A stretch of DNA of 32,000 nt from Ruminococcus albus 7 = DSM 20455. Its GTDB lineage: Bacteria > Bacillota > Clostridia > Oscillospirales > Ruminococcaceae. The stretch lies in contig NC_014833.1 in the NCBI RefSeq assembly GCF_000179635.2, forward strand, positions 1,320,001 to 1,352,000, read 5' to 3'. Each line of letters starts with the position of its first letter. Positions within the stretch are counted from its first letter, which is position 1. Position numbers and translations under genes: made by a program. Of this stretch, positions 5,369 to 29,078 are shown piece by piece. The notes beneath the pieces were generated by a model. It was given only the letters and a program-made list of their open reading frames with translations, was not told where the DNA came from and searched no databases.

Positions 5369-5980
5369 ATTTCAATCCACTCTCCCCGTGTGGGGAGAGA
5401 CATTTTGGCGAAAGTCAGACAACAAGGCGAGTAAAATTTCAATCCACTCTCCCCGTGTGGGGAGAGACCCTTGACAGATATCAACTCACGTTCGGTCTTG
5501 TTGCATTTCAATCCACTCTCCCCGTGTGGGGAGAGACTTGTATACCCTCGCAACGTGCGAGGGATACGGCATTTCAATCCACTCTCCCCGTGTGGGGAGA
5601 GACAGCATGGGGTTACGATATGTTAATTGCATTACTGATTTCAATCCACTCTCCCCGTGTGGGGAGAGACAAAAGGTTATAGCCCACAAAGATGAGATAA
5701 TCGAATTTCAATCCACTCTCCCCGTGTGGGGAGAGACGAAGGATGATCCCGATTGCAAGTACTGCATTTGGATTTCAATCCACTCTCCCCGTGTGGGGAG
5801 AGACCAATGGGACTGAACAAATGTATTTTTCTTGGGAATTTCAATCCACTCTCCCCGTGTGGGGAGAGACAGAGTCGCAGTTTGGCAACAAAGACCATAG
5901 TGGCATTTCAATCCACTCTCCCCGTGTGGGGAGAGACAAGAGATCGGCGGCAATTCGGAAACTGTATGCGTATTTCAATC
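5369..5980 (-). CRISPR. CRISPR array fragment: 9 complete 33-bp repeats, 9 spacers (33-36 bp) and a 9-nt repeat stub cut by IS66
   Basis: The repeat ATTTCAATCCACTCTCCCCGTGTGGGGAGAGAC starts at 5369, 5436, 5505, 5571, 5638, 5705, 5772, 5838 and 5905, and all nine copies are identical. ATTTCAATC at 5972-5980 abuts the IS end. The rc, GTCTCTCCCCACACGGGGAGAGTGGATTGAAAT, has an 8-bp stem and an ATTGAAAT tail like type I-C repeats, so the transcribed strand is inferred to be minus. Confidence 0.95.
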
Positions 5981-6790: not shown

Positions 6791-6882
6791 GGCAATACTT
6801 ACCGAATATTCAGAATATGTGCTTGAAAAGCCCCTCTTTTCGTGGTATCATTAAAGTATCATCACGAACGGAGGGGTGCTTT

Positions 6883-8712
6883 ATGTCCGAACCAAATATG
6901 ACATCGGAAATTGTATCGCTCCGTAATGAAAACGCTGTTCTCAAGGAAGAACTAGCACTTGCCAATCAGCAGTTAGCGTGGTTCAGAAAGCAGATATTCG
7001 GAAGAAAAACAGAGCAGACATCTGTTGTTATGGAAAAGGAGTTCGGTGTTCAGCTTTCCATGTTCGGAAACAATGAAGAAAAATCCGCAGCTAAATCTGC
7101 CGAAACAATTACTGTTCCCGAACACAAGCGCAAGAAAAAACGCACTCACGATGAATGGATGAACAATCTGCCTGTAAAAGAAGAACATCACAAAATTGAC
7201 AACCCGGTATGCGAAATATGCGGCGCCGAAATGGAAGAACTGACTCCCGAAAAGGCTTACGATGAACTTATATTTACGCCGCCAAAATATCATATCCGCA
7301 GGCATATAGTACATAAGTACAAGTGTCCCGAGTGCGGAGAAAAGCCCGAAGAAAGGGACGAACCTTGTCATATCATCCGTGCGCCATATCCTCACGCTAT
7401 GATCCCGGGAAGCTATTGCTCTCCCGAACTTCTGGCTCATATCATCTACGAAAAATATGCAAAGTCAGTACCTCTGCACCGTCAGGAAAAGGACTTTAAT
7501 TCCAAAAACATACCTCTGCTCAAAGCGACTATGTCTAATTGGGTAGGCACTGCTGCCGAAAAATGGTGTTTGCCGATTGTGGAGAAAATGCATGAGATGC
7601 TTATCGCAGGGCAGATGATCCATGCCGATGAAACGACCGTTCAGGTGCTTCACGAGGAAGGCCGAAAGCCTACCACGACATCAAGAATGTGGGTCTACTG
7701 CAACGGCAAAATGAATGACAGGAGCATCATCATTTTCGATTATCAGCCGACACGAAAGGGTGAGCACGCCTCGAATTTCCTGAAAGGATTTATCGGCTAT
7801 CTTATCTGTGACGGATACGATGCCTACAATGCAGTCGAGGGTGCTAAGCGATGCGGCTGTATGACTCATGCAAGGCGTGGTTTTATTCAGGCTCTTCCGA
7901 ACGACCAAAAGCTGCACAGCACTTCTGTTGCGGCAAAGGCAGTAGAATATTTCAACAAGATATATCACGAAGAAAATCTGCTTGCCGACAGCTCCACAGA
8001 ATACAGATATAAACAGCGCCTTGTGAAGGTAAAGCCTTTGCTTGACGAGTTTTTTGCGTGGCTTGAAAATGTTCAGGTCAGTGGTAAGGGCAAGCTGACA
8101 GATGCAGTAAGATATGCGTTGAATGAACGGAAATATCTTTACACGTTTCTTGAAAACGGAGACGTGCCTATCGACAACAACAGAGCCGAAAACGCAATAA
8201 GACCGTTTGCGTTAGGCCGAAAAAATTGGCTGTTTTCAAATACAGCAAACGGAGCCAGATCAAGTGCAACGCTGTATTCGATCATTTCAACTGCACAGGC
8301 GAACGGTGTTGATGCTGAGAAATACCTGACCGAGCTGTTTTCACAGCCTGCGGGGACGATATTATTACCATGGAGGAAGAAAATGAAACTTAGTAATGAA
8401 GATGCAAAGCTGTTTTATGAACTGTTTTTTCCACTGCTTGACTATGTGAACAGAGAATATCATATACTTCCTGAGGAAGATTATTTCGGGCAAGGAATGA
8501 TCGACCCACAGGACGCTGCGGAGGTTGCCCACTTTTATGGGAACGGACATGGATCATTGATGATTATCTTGAGCGATCGGATCTGCCCGAAGAACACATG
8601 GAGATACTTAAAAGCTGGAAAGGGTGCATCACCGGCAGATTTATCATTGAGCGACATTGGAAAAAGGGATCGGTATTTATATCGATCGATGACAATTCTG
8701 TTTTTCTTGTAA
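6883..8712 (+). CDS. tnpC: IS66-family DDE transposase TnpC, open frame running on into a downstream ORF
   Basis: ATG at 6883 follows GGAGGGG. N-terminal leucine zipper plus WFRKQIFGRKTE, a zinc-finger pair (CEICGAEM...YKCPECGE), and the motifs HADETTVQVL, CDGYDAYN, CMTHARRGF and DNNRAENAIRPFALGRKNWLFS. The usual C-terminal LLPW motif is at about 8365-8376, but no stop follows, so the frame continues to 8712. Confidence 0.85.
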   Translation: MSEPNMTSEIVSLRNENAVLKEELALANQQLAWFRKQIFGRKTEQTSVVMEKEFGVQLSMFGNNEEKSAAKSAETITVPEHKRKKKRTHDEWMNNLPVKEEHHKIDNPVCEICGAEMEELTPEKAYDELIFTPPKYHIRRHIVHKYKCPECGEKPEERDEPCHIIRAPYPHAMIPGSYCSPELLAHIIYEKYAKSVPLHRQEKDFNSKNIPLLKATMSNWVGTAAEKWCLPIVEKMHEMLIAGQMIHADETTVQVLHEEGRKPTTTSRMWVYCNGKMNDRSIIIFDYQPTRKGEHASNFLKGFIGYLICDGYDAYNAVEGAKRCGCMTHARRGFIQALPNDQKLHSTSVAAKAVEYFNKIYHEENLLADSSTEYRYKQRLVKVKPLLDEFFAWLENVQVSGKGKLTDAVRYALNERKYLYTFLENGDVPIDNNRAENAIRPFALGRKNWLFSNTANGARSSATLYSIISTAQANGVDAEKYLTELFSQPAGTILLPWRKKMKLSNEDAKLFYELFFPLLDYVNREYHILPEEDYFGQGMIDPQDAAEVAHFYGNGHGSLMIILSDRICPKNTWRYLKAGKGASPADLSLSDIGKRDRYLYRSMTILFFL

Positions 8713-16400: not shown

Positions 16401-19400
16401 TTATTTTATGGTAACGGTAACTGCTCTGCTGTTGAGGTCGCTCTTATCCCACTTGCCATTTACCTTTGCGCAAACGGCGAGCGTATATGTACCACTTTTG
16501 ATTTTTGGGGAAGTATAAGTTGTTGTATTACTGTCAAGCTTAGCCTTTACTACCCATTTTCCGGACTGGAAAACAGCGATAGCATATTCTTCTGCGGCAT
16601 CGACAGGTGTCCAGTTCAGACGGAACTGCTTGCCGGATACCTCGGCAGTTACAACAGGATACTTGTTAACATTCTTTGGTGTTACTACAATTGCCTTTGA
16701 AACATCACGACTCCATTTGCCGCCGATCTTAGCAACTACTGCTACCTTGTAGTTTTCGCCGGGTTTAAGTTTACTAAGCACATAAGTAGTATTGTAGCCA
16801 TAATCGAGAACTGTCCATTTTTTGTTTACATATCCAACTACGGCATACTTTTCAGCACCGGGAACAGCATCCCATTTAAGTCGTACAGCTCTGTCGCCCT
16901 TTTCCCATTTCTTGATTACAACAGCGGGATAATAAGCAGGATAATCAGTAACAAGTTTATTCCAGCATTCCTTCTGGTTGAACTCATAGCAAGACAAAAG
17001 CTTGTTGATGACCAGAATGTTGATCTTTGTTCCTGTAGGAAGATTGATATTCTGCTTGGACATTCCGTTGAGATTTAATACTGTGTTGTTGTCGGTGTTA
17101 ACTATGAAACCGCTGTCAGCACTGATGTTGCCGCTTACGGTAACAATGCCTGCATCCTGCAGAATTCCGTGGCTTTCTTTGATAAGGTAAGTCACAAGAT
17201 CACCATTGATGTTAACCTCGTCGCTATCATATGAAAGGATCAGGTCAGGAGAAGTATAGTTCATAGTATTTCCGATGGAATAGGTGCCATTAACATTCAG
17301 TGAGCCACTATTACAGATGATCGCACCTTCGGAATGATCAAGATTACCATAGATAGTGAGGGACCCGCCATTAATGTCAACAAAATTAGACTTGGCAATG
17401 CTGCAGTCACCGTTAACGACCATGCTATAGTTTGCAAGATTAATGTCTCCAAGGTTCAGATCATTACTTTGAACGTGAATGTCACTATCGAGATTTCTGA
17501 CATTCATATCACCATGCCATATGATCTCACGCATTTCGGGATCAATAACTTTAAGAACATTCAGAGTGGGGCAGTTTCCGAAATATACATTCTGGTCAGA
17601 TGTTCCGTTGAGCACCAAAGTAGTGTAAGTGTCTGTGTTCATTATGAAACCGCTGTCAGCACTGATGTTGCCGCTTACGGTAACAATGCCTGCATCCTGC
17701 AGAATTCCGTGGTTTTCTTTAATAAGGTAAGTCACAAGATCGCCATTGATGTTAACCTCGTCGCAATCATTTGAAAGGATCAGGTCAGGAGAAGTATAGT
17801 TCATAATATTTCCGATGGAATAGGTGCCATTAACATTCAGTGAGCCACTATTACAGATGATCGCACCTTCGGAATGATCAAGATTACCATAGATAGTGAG
17901 GGAACCGCCATTAATGTCAACAAAATTAGACTTGGCAATGCTGCAGTCACCGTTAACGACCATGCTATAGTATGCAAGATTAATGTCTCCAAGGTTCAGA
18001 CCATTACTTTGAACGTGAATGTCACTATCGAGATTTCTGACATTCATATCACCATGCCATATGATCTCACGCATTTCGGGATCAATAACTTTAAGAACAT
18101 TCAGAGTGGGGCAGTTTCCGAAATATACATTCTGGTCAGATGTTCCGTTGAGCACCAAAGTAGTGTAAGTGTCTGTGTTCATTATGAAACCGCTGTCAGC
18201 ACTGATGTTGCCGCTTACGGTAACAATACCTGCATCCTGCAGAATTCCGTGGTTTTCATTGATAAGGTAAGTCACAAGATCACCATTGATGTTAACCTCG
18301 TCGCAATCATATGAAAGGATCAGGTCAGGAGAAGTATAGTTCATAGTATTTCCGATGGAATAGGTGCCATTAACATTCAGTGAGCCACTATTACAGATGA
18401 TCGCACCTTCGGAATGATCAAGATTACCATAGATAGTGAGGGACCCGCCATTAATGTCAACAAAATTAGACTTGGCAATGCTGCAGTCACCGTTAACGAC
18501 CATGCTATAGTTTGCAAGATTAATGTCTCCAAGGTTCAGATCATTACTTTGAACGTGAATGTCACTATCGAGATTTCTGACATTCATATCACCATGCCAT
18601 ATGATCTCACGCATTTCGGGATCAATAACTTTAAGAACATTCAGAGTGGGGCAGTTTCCGAAATATACATTCTGGTCAGATGTTCCGTTGAGCACCAAAG
18701 TAGTGTAAGTGTCTGTGTTCATTATGAAACCGCTGTCAGCACTGATGTTGCCGCTTACGGTAACAATGCCTGCATCCTGCAGAATTCCGTGGTTTTCTTT
18801 AATAAGGTAAGTCACAAGATCGCCATTGATGTTAACCTCGTCGCGATCATTTGAAAGGATCAGGTCAGGAGAAGTATAGTTCATAATATTACCGATGGAA
18901 TAGGTGCCATTAACATTCAGTGAGCCACTATTACAGATGATCGCACCTTCGGAATGATCAAGATTACCATAGATAGTGAGGGAACCGCCATTAATGTCAA
19001 CAAAATTAGACTTGGCAATGCTGCAGTCACCATTAACGACCATGCTATAGTATGCAAGATTAATGTCTCCAAGGTTCAGACTATTACTTTGAACGTGAAT
19101 GTCACTATCGAGATTTCTGACATTCATATCACCATGCCATATGATCTCACGCATTTCGGGATCAATAACTTTAAGAACATTCAGAGTGGGGCAGTTTCCG
19201 AAATATACATTCTGGTCAGATGTTCCGTTGAGCACCAAAGTAGTGTAAGTGTCTGTGTTCATTATGAAACCGCTGTCAGCACTGATGTTGCCGCTTACGG
19301 TAACAATGCCTGCATCCTGCAGAATTCCGTGGTTTTCATTGATAAGGTAAGTCACAAGATCACCATTGATGTTAACCTCGTCGCAATCATATGAAAGGAT

Positions 19401-20327
19401 CAGGTCAGGAGAAGTATAGTTCATAGTATTTCCGATGGAATAGGTGCCATTAACATTCAGTGAGCCACTATTACAGATGATCGCACCTTCGGAATGATCA
19501 AGATTACCATAGATAGTGAGGGACCCGCCATTAATGTCAACAAAATTAGACTTGGCAATGCTGCAGTCACCGTTAACGACCATGCTATAGTTTGCAAGAT
19601 TAATGTCTCCAAGGTTCAGATCATTACTTTGAACGTGAATGTCACTATCGAGATTTCTGACATTCATATCACCATGCCATATGATCTCACGCATTTCGGG
19701 ATCAATAACTTTAAGAACATTCAGAGTGGGGCAGTTTCCGAAATATACATTCTGGTCAGATGTTCCGTTGAGCACCAAAGTAGTGTAAGTGTCTGTGTTC
19801 ATTATGAAACCGCTGTCAGCACTGATGTTGCCGCTTACGGTAACAATGCCTGCATCCTGCAGAATTCCGTGGTTTTCTTTAATAAGGTAAGTCACAAGAT
19901 CGCCATTGATGTTAACCTCGTCGCGATCATTTGAAAGGATCAGGTCAGGAGAAGTATAGTTCATAATATTACCGATGGAATAGGTGCCATTAACATTCAG
20001 TGAGCCACTATTACAGATGATCGCACCTTCGGAATGATCAAGATTACCATTAACGGTCAGACTAAATCCATTCAGGTCTACATCTGCTGAAACAATAAGA
20101 TTTCCGTCAACTACGGTATCTTCGGTAAGTGATACAGGCTTATTCCATGTCGTGGTCTCGCTTGCGACCGCCAGACGGGTTACGGCAGCTGCTTCACCGA
20201 CGTTCTCAGAGATCGCTGCCTGAGCATCATCAACTGAAGCCGCATAGGTCGTTGCTGCAGGTACTGCTGCAACTGTCAACGCCACAGCACTTGCTGTAGT
20301 GATTATGTTTCTAATTCTGCATTTCAT
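16401..20327 (-). CDS. Large secreted repeat protein (1308 aa): six ~180-aa units plus two C-terminal FN3-like modules
   Basis: AGGAGG lies 7 nt before the ATG at 20327. Signal peptide MKCRIRNIITTASAVALTVAAVPAATTYA. The block NLDHSEGAIICNSGSLNVNGTYSIGN occurs six times. The C-terminus carries two modules of the type RL(K/N)W..V.GAE.Y...GKW....Y....K.G..Y......K..GKW. Confidence 0.9.
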   Translation of the reverse strand: MKCRIRNIITTASAVALTVAAVPAATTYAASVDDAQAAISENVGEAAAVTRLAVASETTTWNKPVSLTEDTVVDGNLIVSADVDLNGFSLTVNGNLDHSEGAIICNSGSLNVNGTYSIGNIMNYTSPDLILSNDRDEVNINGDLVTYLIKENHGILQDAGIVTVSGNISADSGFIMNTDTYTTLVLNGTSDQNVYFGNCPTLNVLKVIDPEMREIIWHGDMNVRNLDSDIHVQSNDLNLGDINLANYSMVVNGDCSIAKSNFVDINGGSLTIYGNLDHSEGAIICNSGSLNVNGTYSIGNTMNYTSPDLILSYDCDEVNINGDLVTYLINENHGILQDAGIVTVSGNISADSGFIMNTDTYTTLVLNGTSDQNVYFGNCPTLNVLKVIDPEMREIIWHGDMNVRNLDSDIHVQSNSLNLGDINLAYYSMVVNGDCSIAKSNFVDINGGSLTIYGNLDHSEGAIICNSGSLNVNGTYSIGNIMNYTSPDLILSNDRDEVNINGDLVTYLIKENHGILQDAGIVTVSGNISADSGFIMNTDTYTTLVLNGTSDQNVYFGNCPTLNVLKVIDPEMREIIWHGDMNVRNLDSDIHVQSNDLNLGDINLANYSMVVNGDCSIAKSNFVDINGGSLTIYGNLDHSEGAIICNSGSLNVNGTYSIGNTMNYTSPDLILSYDCDEVNINGDLVTYLINENHGILQDAGIVTVSGNISADSGFIMNTDTYTTLVLNGTSDQNVYFGNCPTLNVLKVIDPEMREIIWHGDMNVRNLDSDIHVQSNGLNLGDINLAYYSMVVNGDCSIAKSNFVDINGGSLTIYGNLDHSEGAIICNSGSLNVNGTYSIGNIMNYTSPDLILSNDCDEVNINGDLVTYLIKENHGILQDAGIVTVSGNISADSGFIMNTDTYTTLVLNGTSDQNVYFGNCPTLNVLKVIDPEMREIIWHGDMNVRNLDSDIHVQSNDLNLGDINLANYSMVVNGDCSIAKSNFVDINGGSLTIYGNLDHSEGAIICNSGSLNVNGTYSIGNTMNYTSPDLILSYDSDEVNINGDLVTYLIKESHGILQDAGIVTVSGNISADSGFIVNTDNNTVLNLNGMSKQNINLPTGTKINILVINKLLSCYEFNQKECWNKLVTDYPAYYPAVVIKKWEKGDRAVRLKWDAVPGAEKYAVVGYVNKKWTVLDYGYNTTYVLSKLKPGENYKVAVVAKIGGKWSRDVSKAIVVTPKNVNKYPVVTAEVSGKQFRLNWTPVDAAEEYAIAVFQSGKWVVKAKLDSNTTTYTSPKIKSGTYTLAVCAKVNGKWDKSDLNSRAVTVTIK
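17101..20050. repeat. Tandem 540-bp repeat array (about 5.5 units) with a 1080-bp higher-order A/B alternation
   Basis: The sequence lines at 17281, 17821, 18361, 18901, 19441 and 19981 are identical. Variant positions alternate between units: GGACCCGCC at 17361, 18441 and 19521, against GGAACCGCC at 17901 and 18981. Units 1080 bp apart are nearly or fully identical. Confidence 0.95.
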
Positions 20328-22743: not shown

Positions 22744-23838
22744 ATGAAAAGTAAAAAGATCATTTCGGGTCTGCTGGCGCTGAGCTTTGTATTCGGCGGC
22801 ACAGCACTGCCCAACACAGTAGTAAACAACAGCGTGTCAGCTTCGGCAAGTGTTGAAGAAATTGCAGAAGAGGCAGAAGTGCTTACATACGGTGACTATA
22901 AGTACAAATTGCTTGATGATGGAACTGCTGAGATAGTAGAGTACACTGGTGATTGTACAGAAATCGAAGAGAATGGTACAGAAGAGATCGAGATACCCAG
23001 TGAGCTCAATGGCGCGATTGTTACAAGTATTGGTTATCATGCATTTTTTTGTCACATGGAACTTGGAAGTATCACATTACCAAAAGACCTGAAGAATATT
23101 GGTGATGGTGCTTTTAAAGATTGTAATGGTTTGAGTAGCATTGTAATTCCTGATGGTGTTGAGTGCATAGGTGATGATGCATTTAGATCTTGCCGTGTAC
23201 TTAGTAGCGTCACTTTTTCTAAAAATCTGAAGTATATAGGTAAAGAAGCTTTTAGATATTGCTCATGTCTTCATGATATTGTTATACCTGATGGTGTGGA
23301 GTATATAGGAGAACGTGCTTTTGCAAAATTTGACAGTTCCTCTGATAATGATATTGGTTACTATTTACACTATAGTGTTACGATTCCTAAAAGTGTAACC
23401 TTTATAGGTGATAATGCGTTTAATAATTTCTCTATTGCTTCGTATGCTTTTAAGCCAGCAAAGGATTATATAATAAATTGCTACAAAGATTCAGCTGCAC
23501 ATAATTATGCTTTAGTTAACGGCAACAACTTCAATGTAATTGATGCTGGTGATAGCAAAACAAAATATCCCGAGCTGATCAAGGAAGAATACAGTCCGAA
23601 ATTCCATAAGTTCCGCCTGAATTGGACAGCAGTAGAGGGTGCGGAACAGTACGGCATTGCAGTTAGACTGGCAGGAAAGTGGAAAGTTCAGGCTTACGTT
23701 GATGCTGATACCACTAAATACGTTACACCTAAGCTGACATCAGGTCAGAATTATCAAACTGTTATCTGTGCAAAGGTCAACGGCAAGTGGGATACTTCCG
23801 TACTAAACAACAGGGCATTCCCCCTTGTTGTAAGGTAA
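22744..23838 (+). CDS. Secreted BspA-type leucine-rich-repeat protein with C-terminal FN3-like module
   Basis: GGAGG RBS and signal peptide. Repeated IP..V..IG..AF..C..L..I units (LRR_5/BspA pattern). The C-terminal ~90 aa, FRLNWTAVEGAEQYGIAVRLAGKWKV...VICAKVNGKWDTSVLNNRAF, are homologous to the C-terminus of the 1308-aa protein. Confidence 0.85.
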   Translation: MKSKKIISGLLALSFVFGGTALPNTVVNNSVSASASVEEIAEEAEVLTYGDYKYKLLDDGTAEIVEYTGDCTEIEENGTEEIEIPSELNGAIVTSIGYHAFFCHMELGSITLPKDLKNIGDGAFKDCNGLSSIVIPDGVECIGDDAFRSCRVLSSVTFSKNLKYIGKEAFRYCSCLHDIVIPDGVEYIGERAFAKFDSSSDNDIGYYLHYSVTIPKSVTFIGDNAFNNFSIASYAFKPAKDYIINCYKDSAAHNYALVNGNNFNVIDAGDSKTKYPELIKEEYSPKFHKFRLNWTAVEGAEQYGIAVRLAGKWKVQAYVDADTTKYVTPKLTSGQNYQTVICAKVNGKWDTSVLNNRAFPLVVR

Positions 23839-23864
23839 TATTGATAAAAATTTAATATAGCACA

Positions 23865-23903
23865 AAAGACACTTCCGCTTGAAAAAGAAGGAGTGTCTTT
23901 TTG
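23865..23903 (+). terminator. Terminator after the LRR gene
   Basis: AAAGACAC(T)TCC pairs with GGAGTGTCTTT and is followed by TTG. The stem has one bulge and the U-run is partly inside the stem. Confidence 0.65.
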
Positions 23904-23942
23904 TTGGTTTGGTGAATATTGGCGGGAAGTTTGGGTTTTCTA

Positions 23943-23971
23943 TTGACATCGGGCGGGAATCATACTATAAT
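23943..23971 (+). promoter_or_regulatory. Perfect-consensus promoter of the five-gene lipid-type operon
   Basis: TTGACA (23943-23948), a 17-nt spacer, then TATAAT (23966-23971). Confidence 0.65.
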
Positions 23972-24010
23972 GTTTATGAATTAATTATTACGTTTCGGAG
24001 GTCTTTTACG

Positions 24011-24661
24011 GTGGATAAGAGAGTCGTGGTATATAAAGTGATGCGGACGGTGCTTGCGCCGCTGTTTTATGTGCTGTTTCAGCCGAAGATAATTGGCGCG
24101 GGGAATATCCCGAAGAACGGGGCGGCGGTCATTGCGGGCAATCACAAGCACGCCCTCGACCCTATCCTCGTGGATATCAGCACTCGCAGGACTGTTCGCA
24201 CACTTGCCAAAAAAGACCTGCATGACAGTGCTTTCGGCTGGTTCTTCAGGAGTTCGGGCACTATCCCCGTAGACCTCCATGCAAAGCATAATCCCGAAGC
24301 CCTGCGTGCCGCTAAGGAAGCCCTCCGCGATGGTGAACTTGTGAATGTTTCCCCCGAGGCGAAGCGAAATTATACCGATGAACTGCTTCTGCCTTTCAAG
24401 TACGGTGCGGCTGTTATGGCAGAGGATACAGGGGCGGTCATCGTTCCTTATGCGATAGCAGGGAAGTACAAGCCTTTCGGCGGACTGACTATAATATTCG
24501 GCAAGCCTTTCAAAGCCACGGGCGATGCGGAAAAGACCAACAGAAAACTCTACAACAGCATTGCCGCCCTGTTAAAAAGGGTCATGCCGAATGAAGAGTT
24601 AGAGTCCAAAAAAATAACCTCTTTTGAAGAATGGAGCAGCAGAAATGAAAAGACATCTTGA
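24011..24661 (+). CDS. Lysophospholipid/glycerol-3-phosphate acyltransferase family protein (PlsC-like LPLAT)
   Basis: GTG at 24011 lies 9 nt after GGAGG; an alternative ATG is at 24041. It has the acyltransferase H-x4-D motif NHKHALD, then GTIPVD, SPEAKRN and AVIVPYAI blocks in the usual order. Confidence 0.8.
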   Translation: MDKRVVVYKVMRTVLAPLFYVLFQPKIIGAGNIPKNGAAVIAGNHKHALDPILVDISTRRTVRTLAKKDLHDSAFGWFFRSSGTIPVDLHAKHNPEALRAAKEALRDGELVNVSPEAKRNYTDELLLPFKYGAAVMAEDTGAVIVPYAIAGKYKPFGGLTIIFGKPFKATGDAEKTNRKLYNSIAALLKRVMPNEELESKKITSFEEWSSRNEKTS

Positions 24662-26279
24662 ATACCCCGATTGTTCGCTGTATCGATATCTTGTCATGAC
24701 AGCGAAGAAATATCCCGATCATACCGCACTGAACTATTTCGGAAACAAGCTGACTTTCCGCCGGCTTATCGGTGAGATAGGCAGAACAGCCCGCGCACTT
24801 ACAGCGGCAGGTGTAAAAAAAGGCGACAGCGTTTCCGTCTGCCTGCCGAATATCCCCCAGGCGGTATTCCTGTTTTACGCCATAAACAAAGTGGGTGCAG
24901 TGGCGAACATGATACATCCGATGTCTGCGGAAAACGAGATAATCCGATATATGGAACTCACCGAGAGCAAATATGTTTTCTTCCTTGATTCCGTTTCGGA
25001 TAAAATGAGAAAGGTTTGCATGAGGGTCTGCCCCGAAAAGGCCGTGGCTGTCAGTGTCATCAACTATATGCCGCCTGTTATACAGGCGGGATATTTTGCA
25101 AAGCTTAAAGGCAAACTACCGGATCATGCAGGGCTTGACAGCTGGTCAGATTTTAATGCGGAGGCAAAGAATATCACAAGCAATATCAATGTGAACTCCG
25201 CTCCCGATGATACTGCGGCGATACTTTACAGCGGAGGAACTACGGGTGTGCCCAAGGGCATAATGCTGACTAACCGCAACTTCAACGCCCTTGCCGACCA
25301 GAGTATCGACGGCTGCGGCAATCTGTACGCAGGAGAGAAGATGCTTTCGGTAATGCCTGTATTCCACGGCTTCGGGCTGGGGGTATGCATACATACTATT
25401 TTAATACTGGGGGGGACGGCGATAATTCTGCCGAAATTCTCTGCGGCTGAATTCCATAAGCTTCTTTTCAAATACAAGCCTAATATAATCGCGGGAGTAC
25501 CTGCCATATATGAAGCTATGCTTATGAACAAGGATTTCGACGACAAGGATATGAGTTTCATCAAGACAGTTATATCGGGCGGAGATTCACTTTCTCCGAG
25601 TTCAAAGAAAAAGCTGAACGAACTTCTTGCTTCCCACGGCAGCAAAGCGCGTGTTAGAGAGGGCTACGGTCTGACAGAGTGCGTAACAGGCTGCTGTCTG
25701 CTGCCCGAGGATTCCGACAAGCTTGAAAGCGTAGGTCTGCCCTATGCCGATACCTATTTCAAGATAGTTGATACCGAGGGCAACGAACTTCCTGTGGGTG
25801 AAACAGGCGAGATAATACTCCGCGGCACAACTGTAATGAAAGGCTATTACAAGGCAGAGGAAGAAACTGCCGATACTCTGCGTATGCACGAAGACGGAAA
25901 TATCTGGCTGCACACAGGCGACTTGGGCTATATGGATAAAGAGGGATATGTGTATTTCAGACAAAGGCTGAAACGTATGATTGTTTCGGGGGGATACAAC
26001 ATCTACCCTCAGAATATCGAGGAAGTAATAAATTCTCACCGCGATGTGGTAATGTGTGCCGTTGTGGGTGTGGAAGATAAGATACTGGGCGAAAAGGTAA
26101 GGGCGTATGTAGTTCCCAAAGAGGGCGTTAATGAGGATATGCTACGCGATGAACTCAAAGAAATGCTGAAAAAGGATATAGCGGTATACGCCCTGCCCAG
26201 AGATATAAGATTCAGGGAAAGTCTGCCGAAAACCCTTGTGGGCAAGGTGGATTATCTTGCGCTGAAAGCTGAGGAGTGA
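24645..26279 (+). CDS. AMP-dependent synthetase/ligase (fatty acyl-CoA or acyl-AMP ligase type)
   Basis: ATG at 24645 follows GGAG and overlaps the upstream stop by 17 nt. AMP-binding motifs YSGGTTGVPKG, GYGLTE, TGDLGYMD and PKTLVGKVD. Confidence 0.9.
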   Translation: MKRHLEYPDCSLYRYLVMTAKKYPDHTALNYFGNKLTFRRLIGEIGRTARALTAAGVKKGDSVSVCLPNIPQAVFLFYAINKVGAVANMIHPMSAENEIIRYMELTESKYVFFLDSVSDKMRKVCMRVCPEKAVAVSVINYMPPVIQAGYFAKLKGKLPDHAGLDSWSDFNAEAKNITSNINVNSAPDDTAAILYSGGTTGVPKGIMLTNRNFNALADQSIDGCGNLYAGEKMLSVMPVFHGFGLGVCIHTILILGGTAIILPKFSAAEFHKLLFKYKPNIIAGVPAIYEAMLMNKDFDDKDMSFIKTVISGGDSLSPSSKKKLNELLASHGSKARVREGYGLTECVTGCCLLPEDSDKLESVGLPYADTYFKIVDTEGNELPVGETGEIILRGTTVMKGYYKAEEETADTLRMHEDGNIWLHTGDLGYMDKEGYVYFRQRLKRMIVSGGYNIYPQNIEEVINSHRDVVMCAVVGVEDKILGEKVRAYVVPKEGVNEDMLRDELKEMLKKDIAVYALPRDIRFRESLPKTLVGKVDYLALKAEE

Positions 26280-26284
26280 TATCT

Positions 26285-27616
26285 ATGGATAACAGAAAAA
26301 TATTGCTTGTCCACCCCGAGATATCCAGGACAAAATATAATTTTGCGGGGATAATCGACAACGAACCCCTTGAACTAGAATACATCTGCACCGTTCTGAA
26401 AGATGCAGGATATGAACCTTTTATATGGGACGGTCAGGTCGAAGAACAGCCATTTGTAAAGCGCCTTGCGGAGATATCTCCCTTTGCGGTGTACGTATGC
26501 GGAAGAACAAGGCAGGAAAATTTCATGAAAGAGTACTGCCGTGCTGCTAAGGATATTGGCTGTATCACCATGATAGGCGGACTTCACGCACAGCACAACA
26601 ACAAGAGGTTCTATGAAAGCTATATCGATTTTGTGTTCAGGAGTTTTGATATATTCGGTATTGTGAATGTGCTTGAAAACAAAGCCCTCGACACGGTGAA
26701 CGGACTCTGCATAAACCACGGAAACCGCTGGGTGGAGAATGAGGCAACTCCCTTTGATATCAAACGTCTGCCCCGCCCCGACAGAAGCTATTTTTATGCC
26801 CACCCCCGCTACCGCTATCTTGAATTACAGCCCTGCGCCCATGTGAGGACTGCATACTGCTGTCCCTACAAGTGTAAATTCTGCTACCGCAACAGGCTGA
26901 ACTGCGGAACTTACTCCGCAAGAGATATCGCAGATGTGGTGGACGAGATAGCTTCAATAGAATGTGATAATATATATTTCATCGATGACGATTTTCTCTT
27001 TGGTGAAAAGCGCCTTGAAGAATTTATCCGCCTTGTAAAGGAAAGGGGCATACACAAAAAGTATGTCTGCTACGGCAGAGCGGATTTCATATCAAAGCAC
27101 CGCGACCTTATGAAGCGCCTGAAAGAGATAGGTTTCTACTATGTGCTGGTAGGACTTGAAGCGGCGGACGACAAGCATCTGTACCGCTATAATAAAAAGT
27201 CCGACCTTTACGCCAATTCTGCGGCGGTGGAGATACTCAACGATCTGGGTATAAACGCTATGGGTATGTTCATAGTTGATCTGGATTTCAAGGCACGGGA
27301 TTTCAGGGATATCTCAAAATGGGTGAGAAAGCACAAACTCAAACACGCGGCTGTATCCATATTCACCCCCGAGATGAACAGCGAACTGTTTGAAGAATAC
27401 CGAAGCCGCCTTATCACCCGTGACCCCTCCCACTGGGACTATCTCCATGTTGTGGCAAAGCCTGCCCACATGAGTGTAAAGCGGTATTATATGCATTATC
27501 ATATCCTCATCGGCAGACTGTTCCTGCGGGCATGGCGGCAGGGGATATATGATTTTATCGACTATAAATTCTTTATAGGTTCGATAGTTAAAAATATGTT
27601 CAGGTTCGGAGGATAG
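26285..27616 (+). CDS. B12-binding-domain radical SAM protein
   Basis: GAGGAG lies 8 nt before the ATG at 26285. An N-terminal Rossmann-like region (KILLVHPE...ITMIGGLHA) is followed by the radical SAM cluster motif CPYKCKFC (C-x3-C-x2-C) and DDDF/GLE blocks. Confidence 0.85.
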   Translation: MDNRKILLVHPEISRTKYNFAGIIDNEPLELEYICTVLKDAGYEPFIWDGQVEEQPFVKRLAEISPFAVYVCGRTRQENFMKEYCRAAKDIGCITMIGGLHAQHNNKRFYESYIDFVFRSFDIFGIVNVLENKALDTVNGLCINHGNRWVENEATPFDIKRLPRPDRSYFYAHPRYRYLELQPCAHVRTAYCCPYKCKFCYRNRLNCGTYSARDIADVVDEIASIECDNIYFIDDDFLFGEKRLEEFIRLVKERGIHKKYVCYGRADFISKHRDLMKRLKEIGFYYVLVGLEAADDKHLYRYNKKSDLYANSAAVEILNDLGINAMGMFIVDLDFKARDFRDISKWVRKHKLKHAAVSIFTPEMNSELFEEYRSRLITRDPSHWDYLHVVAKPAHMSVKRYYMHYHILIGRLFLRAWRQGIYDFIDYKFFIGSIVKNMFRFGG

Positions 27617-27617
27617 C

Positions 27618-28289
27618 ATGGGAGAAGTATATAAGAATCCAGTTAAAAAAATGATACCAAGCAAGCTGGAAACAGGATTTCAGCAGTTTTTATACAAGCA
27701 CGTGGGTCCCCATATACCAAAGGGCATGACACCTAATCAGATGACCACGGTCAGTGCGCTGGGGGGAGTTTTCGCCATAGTTATGACACTTCTTACCAAC
27801 CTGTCGTCATGGTTCTGGCTTGGTACAATAGCAGGTCTGGCGGTGCATCTTGTGGCAGATGACCTTGACGGCTATATAGCAAGGTCGAGGGGGCTGTCCT
27901 CAAAAGCGGGTGCGTATTACGACCTTATGGTGGATATACTTTTCTCAACATTTCTGATAATATCTATAGGTATGACTCCTGCGGCACATCTTCTGCCAAT
28001 GGCGCTGGCGGCACCCCTTTACGGCATCATGAATGTAACCATGATGAACTATATCATCTATTTCAACGAATTCCAGTTTCCGCGCTTAGGCCCTATCGAA
28101 GCCCATATCAGCTATACCGTGATAGCGATATGCGCCATGATATTCAAGGAAAATGAGGTATTCACTGTTTTTGGTCACGGTGTGACAGTAGTGGATATCA
28201 TAGCAGTCATCGCCATGATACCCATGTACTATGAAATGATACGCATGATAATAGCCCTGTTCAAACGGCTGGAGGCCAGTCAGAGATGA
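27618..28289 (+). CDS. CDP-alcohol phosphatidyltransferase family membrane protein
   Basis: It starts 1 nt after the upstream stop, with a GGAGGA RBS. It has an exact D-G-x2-A-R-x8-G-x3-D-x3-D signature (DGYIARSRGLSSKAGAYYDLMVD) and multiple TM helices. Confidence 0.9.
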   Translation: MGEVYKNPVKKMIPSKLETGFQQFLYKHVGPHIPKGMTPNQMTTVSALGGVFAIVMTLLTNLSSWFWLGTIAGLAVHLVADDLDGYIARSRGLSSKAGAYYDLMVDILFSTFLIISIGMTPAAHLLPMALAAPLYGIMNVTMMNYIIYFNEFQFPRLGPIEAHISYTVIAICAMIFKENEVFTVFGHGVTVVDIIAVIAMIPMYYEMIRMIIALFKRLEASQR

Positions 28290-28912
28290 GATATATCTAC
28301 ATCGTGCTGATAAAGGCGCATACAGGTCTTGGGAGCGTTGCGCGAAAATTTACACGCTATCCCTACACTCATATAGCAGTCTGCCTTGATAAGTCACTGA
28401 CGGACTATATCAGCTTTTCCAGAAGATACCATTACTATCCCTTTGAAGCGGGCTTCACCCACGAATACCGCGATTATTACGCATTCGGTGAACACAGGGA
28501 TTACGGCGTGAAAGTCTTTCGCCTGCCTGTGGAAGAAGATGCCTATGCTGATATCCTTACCTTTATAAAAGACCGTGAAAACGGAGGATATCTCTTCAAT
28601 GTGTACTCAATGGCGACTATGCCGCTGATAGGTGGTTTCAGGATAGCAGGTGCTGAAAACTGCATGAGTTTTACGTCGCAGATGATAGAGAAAAGCAGGG
28701 CTGTAAAACTCGCCAAGCCATACTGGAGGTATTCTATCAGGGATATAGATGAACTGCTAATTAAATTTCAATATTTTACAGGCAGGATAAGAAAACGTCC
28801 ATGCGATTTTCACCCTGAATATATGCAGAAGTTCTGCATAAAGCGATATCTGAAGGGTATGGTCAGGCTTATGATCCCGCTGACGAAACGGCTTATAACC
28901 GGGCAAAAATGA
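28286..28912 (+). CDS. LRAT/NlpC-P60-superfamily-like His/Cys protein (tentative), last gene of the operon
   Basis: ATGA start/stop overlap with the upstream gene. It has an early His in YPYTHIAV (His29) and a later Asn-Cys in AENCMSFTSQ (Cys126). This resembles the H...NCEHF arrangement of LRAT/PLAAT acyltransferases and permuted papain-fold enzymes. Confidence 0.7.
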   Translation: MRYIYIVLIKAHTGLGSVARKFTRYPYTHIAVCLDKSLTDYISFSRRYHYYPFEAGFTHEYRDYYAFGEHRDYGVKVFRLPVEEDAYADILTFIKDRENGGYLFNVYSMATMPLIGGFRIAGAENCMSFTSQMIEKSRAVKLAKPYWRYSIRDIDELLIKFQYFTGRIRKRPCDFHPEYMQKFCIKRYLKGMVRLMIPLTKRLITGQK

Positions 28913-28963
28913 ACGTTGGTCATATTGTAAGGGCGAATAAGAGAAAAAATAATATACATGATC

Positions 28964-28994
28964 AAGCGCATATTTTTTGATAATATGCGCTTTT
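28964..28994 (+). terminator. Terminator of the lipid-type operon
   Basis: AAGCGCATATT (28964-28974) pairs with AATATGCGCTT (28982-28992), followed by TT. Confidence 0.6.
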
Positions 28995-29049: not shown

Positions 29050-29078
29050 TTGACATCACTGCTGAAATATGCTAAAAT
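29050..29078 (+). promoter_or_regulatory. Consensus promoter of the salvage operon
   Basis: TTGACA (29050-29055), a 17-nt spacer, then TAAAAT (29073-29078) with an extended-10 TGC. Confidence 0.6.

Follow-up and report, generated by a model that had tools for sequence, protein, structure and literature searches.

Gene clusters of the Burkholderiales_CDP-OH type were reportedly predicted to make phosphonolipids by Yu et al. in 2013. These clusters (Group 1) combine phosphoenolpyruvate (PEP) mutase, a decarboxylase, and PntC-type cytidylyltransferase(s) with a cytidine diphosphate (CDP)-alcohol transferase and phospholipid genes (PMC8942020). They also carry a 2-aminoethylphosphonate (AEP) transaminase and an alpha-ketoglutarate oxygenase for a 1-hydroxy-AEP head group, and their product is predicted and has never been isolated (Li & Horsman 2022, PMC8942020). 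None of the two largest predicted phosphonolipid cluster groups has yielded a characterised member despite more than a decade of genome prediction, and among the ten families of clusters that form 2-hydroxyethylphosphonate (HEP), isolated products exist for two (PMC8942020). In fosfomycin biosynthesis, Fom1 makes the cytidine monophosphate (CMP) conjugate CMP-HEP (PMC6697681), which the cobalamin-dependent radical S-adenosylmethionine (SAM) enzyme Fom3 converts into CMP-2-hydroxypropylphosphonate (PMC8158854). As for PntC/LicC and LicD tailoring, an NTP_transf_3 enzyme forms a CMP or CDP conjugate of the head group, which is then transferred to glycans (PMC6697681). The present analysis concerns an operon of five + strand genes (g1 to g5) at 23943-28994 of a 32,000-nucleotide (nt) stretch of Ruminococcus albus 7 = DSM 20455 (NC_014833.1, positions 1,320,001 to 1,352,000), hereafter the window, in which a B12-binding radical SAM enzyme stands among phospholipid-type genes.

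Taken alone, the R. albus operon is a conserved five-gene lipid-type operon. Considered together with its relatives, it may represent the lipid-assembly half of a two-module pathway leading to a membrane lipid whose head group is a phosphonate (C-P) compound, a reading to which we assign a probability of about 0.5. What was observed are the gene identities, the conserved cassette, and its physical linkage to genes for HEP formation and cytidylyl activation; the substrates and the order of the steps are inferred from these.

Related loci resemble the early Streptomyces fosfomycin pathway (Fom1/Fom2/FomC/Fom3) in having PEP mutase, decarboxylase, iron-containing alcohol dehydrogenase (Fe-ADH), a Fom1-like cytidylyltransferase, and a B12-radical SAM enzyme. 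In contrast to that pathway, they have no FomD hydrolase or Fom4 epoxidase and carry a CDP-alcohol transferase and acyl-handling enzymes instead; the radical SAM gene is set between the acyl ligase and the membrane transferase, the hosts are anaerobic Clostridia, and the R. albus window carries the radical SAM/lipid half alone. In enzyme class g3 resembles Fom3, and a gene context of the Fom3 kind surrounds it in 34 of 80 related loci but neither in this window nor in three other R. albus loci. With the Burkholderiales_CDP-OH clusters the Clostridial loci share PEP mutase, decarboxylase, cytidylyltransferase, CDP-alcohol transferase, and phospholipid genes. However, their branch enzyme, where checked, is a HEP-forming Fe-ADH, the tailoring enzyme is a B12-radical SAM protein, they contain an acyl ligase and a permuted Cys/His protein in addition, and phylum and habitat are different. 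No paper describing a HEP pathway together with a B12-radical SAM enzyme, a CDP-alcohol transferase, an acyl ligase/acyltransferase, and a g5-type protein was found in the literature searched, and Ruminococcus, Butyrivibrio, and Lachnospiraceae turned up in no report of a phosphonolipid; Ruminococcus and Lachnospiraceae are also missing from the supplements of PMC8942020 and PMC6697681. The original prediction, made by a model from the sequence of the window, had likewise known of no characterised operon of this composition. The features of the operon are as follows (protein lengths in amino acids, aa).

23943-23971, + strand: sigma-70-type promoter, TTGACA-17 nt-TATAAT, 12/12 consensus match
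24011-24661, + strand: g1, PlsC/LPLAT-type acyltransferase, 216 aa, GTG start in frame with GGAGG 9 nt upstream
24645-26279, + strand: g2, ANL-family acyl-AMP/acyl-CoA ligase, 544 aa, PF00501 and PF13193
26285-27616, + strand: g3, class B radical SAM enzyme, 443 aa, PF04055 and PF02310
27618-28289, + strand: g4, CDP-alcohol phosphotransferase, 223 aa, PF01066
28286-28912, + strand: g5, predicted permuted papain/NlpC-P60-like fold, 208 aa, no Pfam/NCBIfam match
28964-28992, + strand: terminator-like hairpin, 11-bp stem and 7-nt loop, followed by UUUACUGU

Cassette conservation and phosphonate neighbours

A scan of a one-genome-per-species collection yielded 158 confirmed loci, the best 80 of which were analysed (labelled L0xx). 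Their hosts belong to Ruminococcus/Oscillospiraceae and Lachnospiraceae (Butyrivibrio, Agathobacter, and Anaerosporobacter). The order g1-g5 is identical in 63 of the 80 species-level genomes, and most exceptions are contig ends; the five-gene set, whose conservation the original prediction had left to be checked, is thus clearly conserved as a unit. A homologue search returned 426 protein clusters. Compared with R. albus KH2T6, AR67, and 8, g3 shows 97%, 95%, and 82% identity, respectively, and the ratio of nonsynonymous to synonymous substitution rates between R. albus strains is 0.04-0.17 for all five genes, which are under purifying selection. The operon has no match among the plasmids of PLSDB. 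A rearranged version is present in Butyrivibrio proteoclasticus P6B7 (L073 1451-5894), where g5 lies ahead of g1 and no PEP mutase occurs within 10 kb; the upstream genes encode an NTP_transf-phosphonopyruvate decarboxylase fusion, a symporter of the Na+:alanine family, and an Fe-ADH.

The cassette directly borders at least one gene of phosphonate supply in 50 of the 80 loci, with that gene either on the same strand downstream or divergently upstream. Anaerosporobacter mobilis DSM 15930 and Butyrivibrio sp. LB2008 are isolates in which the supply module lies beside the cassette, and the Anaerosporobacter cluster (L069 7699-16479) comprises 8-9 genes. PEP mutase is found in 34 and an NTP_transf_3 nucleotidyltransferase in 48 of them. 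When only amply flanked loci are considered (n = 46), PEP mutase is present in 21, NTP_transf_3 in 31, and neither in 14, the latter including all R. albus loci. The neighbouring PEP mutases pass TIGR02320 (384.6 and 359.9 bits, cut-off 319.55), with the EDKxxxxxNS motif reading EDKTGLKKNS and EDKKGLKQNS, and the neighbouring phosphonopyruvate decarboxylase passes TIGR03297 (449.6 vs 312.5 bits). As for the branch gene, it is an Fe-ADH in all six clusters checked with Pfam (L020, L024, L036, L069, L073, and L085), often fused to an NTP_transf_3 domain, and according to tblastn an alcohol dehydrogenase adjoins most PEP-mutase-linked cassettes. The best named family for the L020 dehydrogenase is the phosphonate-associated Fe-ADH, which is not the case for the L069 fusion. 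The combination of PEP mutase, decarboxylase, Fe-ADH, and NTP_transf_3 implies a route from phosphonoacetaldehyde through HEP to nucleotidyl-HEP.

In clusters of the R. flavefaciens type, PEP mutase is part of a triple fusion (NTP_transf_3 - CTP_transf_like - PEP mutase), the CTP_transf domain of which matches the cytidylyltransferase domain of Fom1 (PDB 5x3d) with an E-value of 1.1e-37. NTP_transf_3 also shows a weak match to the IPCT half of archaeal IPCT/DIPPS (4mnd) and g4 to the other half; in this enzyme a cytidylyltransferase is paired with a CDP-alcohol transferase. The similarity is very weak, and the archaeal enzymes are fused and produce an osmolyte that is soluble, while g4 is not fused and stands as a protein of 223 aa in a lipid context.

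Another Ruminococcus contig (L085 1-21302, metagenome-assembled genome JBJFHX010000180.1) carries a CT-PEP mutase, an Fe-ADH, and a phosphonopyruvate decarboxylase beside LicD, glycosyltransferases, and dTDP-sugar genes, with no g3 or g4, and is a probable HEP-decorated glycan locus. The coupling of HEP genes to LicD suggests that the activated phosphonate is a transferable unit, with g4 taking the place of LicD in the cassette. NTP_transf_3 activation and this HEP-LicD locus bring the Clostridial genes close to PntC/LicC-LicD glycan tailoring; unlike in LicD systems, the transferase of the cassette is a membrane CDP-alcohol phosphotransferase and no glycosyltransferases accompany it.

Supply also varies among the cassettes. 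In L052 (12674-14649), a PgtP/GlpT-like organophosphate antiporter of the major facilitator superfamily and a stand-alone NTP_transf_3 gene replace PEP mutase and decarboxylase, and a similar layout is deduced for L049, L058, and L074 from a 1.3-kb gap before NTP_transf_3. Such cassettes, of which several Lachnospiraceae have one, suggest that supply is modular and that the head group can be imported as well. Linked and unlinked cassettes may be closely related: L021 (unlinked) and L045 (linked) share 87-90% identity in g3 and g4, and for R. flavefaciens ND2009 (L013, unlinked) and L028 (linked) the values are 81-86%, which indicates that linkage is won and lost over short times while the proteins stay unchanged.

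Protein assignments and expression signals

All five gene calls and the motifs quoted for them in the original prediction were confirmed. For g3, Radical_SAM (PF04055) scores 56.4 bits (cut-off 29.5) and B12-binding (PF02310) 35.6 bits (cut-off 32.1); the cluster motif CPYKCKFC occupies aa 193-200, and C193, C197, and C200 are invariant in all alignments. Its AlphaFold2 (AF2) model has a mean predicted local distance difference test (pLDDT) value of 91 and aligns over the full length with MgmA, OxsB, TsrM, AprD4, and CysS in Foldseek (template modelling (TM) scores 0.69-0.76), a result that confirms the enzyme class and nothing narrower. Searched by sequence, PDB yielded no match to g3. The order of domains, B12-binding followed by radical SAM, is that of HpnR and BchE. 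However, no hopanoid or chlorophyll genes are present, and in hidden Markov model (HMM) searches g3 reaches 135.4 bits for HpnR (TIGR04367, cut-off 650), 117.8 bits for BchE (TIGR02026, cut-off 481), and 81 bits for PhpK, the third-ranked named model (cut-off 600).

When 1.84 billion cluster representatives were searched exhaustively, 235 relatives of g3 were recovered at E <= 1e-30. Among the 100 nearest representatives HpnR is the most frequent top match, and none of them reaches the cut-off of a named family, according to bit scores estimated from E-values (best HpnR 8.5e-91, best BchE 7.8e-61). Membership in HpnR or BchE was therefore rejected for g3, since it and its nearest 100 relatives alike fall short. 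Relatives at 31-36% identity (among P0134-P0229) have class I SAM-dependent methyltransferase domains fused at either end, and the distant relative P0198 (920 aa) has a fused BioF/serine-palmitoyltransferase-like pyridoxal phosphate domain. Given the scores below cut-off and the methyltransferase-fused relatives, g3 is by its sequence a member of an uncharacterised class B radical SAM clade and most probably a methylase, probably a C-methyltransferase. A tetraether or diabolic-acid synthase was also considered and rejected: GDGT-MAS (7tol) aligns over 188 columns that cover the radical SAM core alone (TMq 0.32). The proposal that g3 acts on unactivated lipid carbons, in the manner of hopanoid, tetraether, or diabolic-acid enzymes, thus finds no backing in either comparison, and the HMM scores assigned g3 to no named family.

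The g4 protein contains DDLDGYIARSRGLSSKAGAYYDLMVD at aa 81-106, a perfect Dx2DGx2ARx8Gx3Dx3D signature, together with several hydrophobic segments, and scores 48.8 bits for CDP-OH_P_transf (PF01066, cut-off 22); on this sequence evidence it is classed as an integral-membrane CDP-alcohol phosphotransferase. Choline/ethanolamine phosphotransferases belong to the same Pfam family. No equivalog cut-off is reached for PgsA, PssA, PIP synthase, or cardiolipin synthase: the top NCBIfam match is archaetidylinositol-P synthase with 40.3 bits (cut-off 180), and PgsA yields 20.6 bits (cut-off 109). The nearest solved structures, both weak matches, are IPCT-DIPPS 4mnd (E 3e-4), the DIPPS domain of which, going by its name, takes the soluble donor CDP-inositol, and AF2299 (E 2e-3).

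For g1, the HX4D motif NHKHALD lies at aa 44-50 and the Acyltransferase domain (PF01553) scores 77.8 bits. It remains under the cut-off of TIGR00530 (1-acylglycerol-3-phosphate acyltransferase, 79.2 vs 102.95 bits), its closest solved structure in a PDB search is T. maritima PlsC (5kym, E 1e-9), and its N-terminus is a hydrophobic segment. It also matches the acyltransferase domain models of Aas (68.7 bits). The pairing of a PlsC-type acyltransferase with an ANL ligase recalls E. coli Aas (2-acylglycerophosphoethanolamine acyltransferase/acyl-ACP synthetase), but g1 and g2 are separate proteins and the score is far under the equivalog cut-off of 1221.

As for g2, AMP-binding (PF00501) and AMP-binding_C (PF13193) score 280.9 and 73.3 bits, respectively, and the P-loop-like motif YSGGTTGVPKG is found at aa 195-205. 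Its top NCBIfam match is long-chain-fatty-acid-CoA ligase (375.7 bits, cut-off 476), with no FadD equivalog reached, and in PDB 4-coumarate-CoA ligase (211 bits) scores highest, level with A. fulgidus FadD-1 (208 bits). The class of acyl-AMP/CoA ligase proposed originally is upheld, but because 4-coumarate ligases score level with FadD, the fatty-acid substrate proposed with it is an assumption. More broadly, the 4-coumarate/feruloyl-CoA ligases of plants and bacteria are as close to g2 as fatty-acid ligases are. R. albus needs phenylacetate or phenylpropionate for full cellulolytic activity, and to connect this requirement with the aromatic-ligase likeness of g2 would be pure speculation. Five of the analysed cassettes have no g2.

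No Pfam or NCBIfam model, including LRAT, NlpC/P60, and Peptidase_C92, matched g5, and its approximately 150 homologues are all annotated as hypothetical and all come from the same Clostridia. H29, H49, and C126, the latter within NCMSF (aa 125-129), are invariant in alignments of 32-35 sequences. The AF2 model (pLDDT 91.3) retrieves 3kw0 as the top Foldseek match (probability 0.98, E 0.027, TM 0.44-0.50), followed by TseH and YiiX. With His before Cys, an NCxxF-type motif, and the predicted fold, g5 resembles LRAT/PLAAT and YiiX-type permuted NlpC/P60 proteins, while it differs from them in having no Pfam match and TM scores of only 0.36-0.50. The description of g5 as an LRAT-like His/Cys protein is reasonable in view of the permuted fold match and the invariant residues, though tentative; on its model, the protein is a putative acyl hydrolase or transferase. 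Two loci contain g3 and g5 only (L071 10004-12039, beside MoxR and DUF58 genes, and L082 10001-11969), and in L070 and L076 g3 stands alone, with no g1, g2, g4, or phosphonate gene. The g3-g5 pairs without the remaining cassette hint that these two genes may form the tightest functional pair.

The layout of the operon agrees with the original prediction. The junctions g1/g2, g2/g3, g3/g4, and g4/g5 were reproduced as -17, +5, +1, and -4 nt, a GGAG-type ribosome-binding site precedes all five starts, and the predicted single promoter and single terminator are both present, with a weak T-tail in the terminator. The promoter at 23943-23971 is the top scorer among 17 promoter-like sites in a scan of the surrounding 5.8 kb, and coordinate 23943 marks its -35 box rather than the start of a gene; a longer TTG-initiated open reading frame (ORF) that overlaps g1 in the mechanical ORF list starts 5' of this promoter. 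Upstream, the operon is insulated by a separate hairpin and T-run at approximately 23864-23905, which end the preceding gene (22744-23838). The hairpin at 28964-28992 has a predicted energy of -17.7 kcal/mol (z = -5.3), with none of 200 shuffles equally stable, and it was not flagged by the consensus terminator scan because its T-tail is short and weak. A separate promoter-like site at 29050-29078 precedes the downstream gene, which encodes a xanthine/uracil permease. Rfam reported no riboswitch or other RNA, including the cobalamin riboswitch, in the window.

Proposed head-group chemistry and competing readings

In the proposed pathway, the supply module of related genomes would start with PEP mutase and phosphonopyruvate decarboxylase, which would yield phosphonoacetaldehyde, and Fe-ADH would reduce it to HEP. 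A LicC/PntC-like NTP_transf_3 enzyme and/or the Fom1-like CTP_transf domain would then form CMP-HEP. The radical SAM enzyme g3 would methylate this activated head group in the manner of Fom3, giving CMP-2-hydroxypropylphosphonate, and g4 would pass the phosphonyl group of this CMP conjugate on to an alcohol of the lipid, for instance diacylglycerol, with release of CMP, by analogy with choline/ethanolamine phosphotransferases and with the predicted Burkholderia CDP-OH phosphonolipid clusters (PMC8942020). As for the acyl-handling proteins, g2 would activate a carboxylic acid, g1 would acylate, as an Aas-like partner of g2, either the lipid backbone or the hydroxyl left free on the head group, and g5, as a permuted Cys/His enzyme, may remove or move an acyl chain. 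In R. albus the activated head group would come from genes elsewhere in the genome or by uptake. HEP formation, cytidylylation, and a B12-radical SAM enzyme together reproduce the substrate logic of Fom3, and the phosphonate and cytidylyltransferase neighbours in 50 of the 80 loci favour head-group chemistry of the fosfomycin type over tail chemistry. The action of g3 on the head group, proposed by analogy, is itself tentative, and we place its chances somewhat below even. Of the original proposal of an unusual-lipid operon, the lipid product stands as the most likely outcome, while the chemistry is likely to take place on a phosphonate head group and not on lipid tails.

Several observations weigh against a phosphonate head group. 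No PEP mutase, decarboxylase, Fe-ADH, or cytidylyltransferase is present in the 32-kb window (approximately 24 kb upstream and 3 kb downstream of the operon), nor do three further genomes of R. albus carry any of these supply genes at up to 10 kb from the operon. Moreover, g3 always accompanies lipid genes and never phosphonate genes as such, it also occurs with g5 alone or entirely alone, its top named HMM is the lipid methylase HpnR with the phosphonate enzyme PhpK only third, and the literature searched offers no lipid or phosphonate chemistry for these organisms. The missing nearby supply genes in R. albus, the company of lipid genes, and the HpnR match keep alive the reading given originally, in which the product is an ordinary phosphate-headed glycerolipid and g3 methylates or forms a C-C bond on an unactivated acyl carbon. 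Here g2 and g1 would install a special acyl chain, g5 would remodel it, g4 would add a conventional head group, and the phosphonate linkage would be secondary. HpnR, a hopanoid C-3 methylase, is indeed both the nearest named model of g3 and the commonest best match among its 100 nearest representatives, but 135 bits is far under the cut-off of 650, and no neighbour reaches that of any named family. The position of g3 between acyl-activating and transferase genes in every cassette, the solitary cassettes in 14 of 46 well-flanked loci, including all those of R. albus, the g3-g5 pairs that have no head-group genes, and the one distant relative with a serine-palmitoyltransferase-like domain are all consistent with work on the tail. 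Cross-linkers of the GDGT-MAS/Tes type, however, match g3 in the radical SAM core alone (TM 0.32), and tail chemistry leaves unexplained both the cytidylyltransferase/phosphonate adjacency in 50 of 80 cassettes and a HEP-forming dehydrogenase as the branch enzyme wherever checked. We consider this reading unlikely.

Phosphonate chemistry could also enter the lipid at another point. In a glycerol-free variant, 2-hydroxypropylphosphonate (CH3-CHOH-CH2-PO3) made by g3 would replace glycerol-3-phosphate as the acylated backbone: g2 and g1 would acylate its 2-hydroxyl while it is bound to CMP, forming an analogue of CDP-diacylglycerol, g4 would pass the acyloxypropylphosphonyl group to a polar alcohol, and g5 would edit the acyl group. 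Every gene has a role in this scheme, which parallels the logic of PlsC, CdsA, and PgsA. PlsC enzymes acylate a secondary hydroxyl beta to the phosphoryl-bearing carbon, and g1 is PlsC-like in its HX4D motif and its T. maritima PlsC match; the best NCBIfam matches of g4 are phosphatidyl- and archaetidyl-transferases acting on phosphorylated alcohols, and the genes for HEP formation and cytidylylation are adjacent or fused. Nevertheless, the scheme is speculative throughout and has no known lipid as a precedent, the nearest structures of g4 are 4mnd, with its soluble CDP-inositol, and AF2299, which is uncharacterised, five cassettes do without g2, and R. albus poses the same supply problem, so that we regard the variant as quite improbable. 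Alternatively, the product may not be a membrane lipid at all, if an activated phosphonate or phospho-alcohol were placed on a wall polymer or glycolipid anchor, or if a small acylated phosphonate were exported. The LicD glycan-decoration locus of another Ruminococcus (L085) uses the same HEP genes, surface tailoring is the presumed role of approximately half of the phosphonate clusters of bacteria (PMC8942020), 4mnd transfers between two soluble alcohols, and g2 resembles aromatic-acid CoA ligases as much as FadD. Yet g4 is an integral membrane protein by its predicted segments and the PlsC-type enzyme g1 begins with a hydrophobic segment, the cassette has no glycosyltransferase, flippase, or exporter as a conserved companion, and no carrier protein or condensation enzyme of the natural-product type is present, which makes a non-membrane product very improbable. 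The phosphonate-headed membrane lipid is thus the reading preferred here.

Surroundings of the operon and biological meaning

The operon is flanked by dockerin and other surface proteins typical of R. albus. The BspA-type leucine-rich repeat protein encoded directly upstream (22744-23838) ends in the same C-terminal fn3-like module as a secreted protein of 1308 aa (16401-20327, - strand), in which near-identical repeats of approximately 180 aa (540 nt) are followed by fn3-like modules; these repeats give rise to five identical spurious ORFs on the opposite strand. Farther away, the window contains an intact IS66-family transposase (6817-8712, + strand; DDE_Tnp_IS66 297.7 bits, with zinc-finger and leucine-zipper domains), upstream of which a small ORF (20-385, - strand) is transposon-like too, and a CRISPR-like array at 5435-5980 with approximately 8 copies of a repeat of approximately 33 nt (ATTTCAATCCACTCTCCCCGTGTGGGGAGAGAC), spacers of approximately 34 nt, and a period of 67.

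The cassette represents a compact and widely conserved phosphonolipid candidate, and its cultured hosts include the cellulolytic rumen bacteria R. albus, R. flavefaciens, and Butyrivibrio, as well as Anaerosporobacter mobilis. If the proposed pathway is true, radical methylation of the Fom3 type would reach from antibiotic biosynthesis into membrane biogenesis, and the g5 family, for which no Pfam or NCBIfam model matched, would gain its first function. The product would be a C-P lipid able to withstand gut phosphatases and phospholipases, which would bear on both the cycling of phosphorus and the dependence on cobalamin in the rumen.

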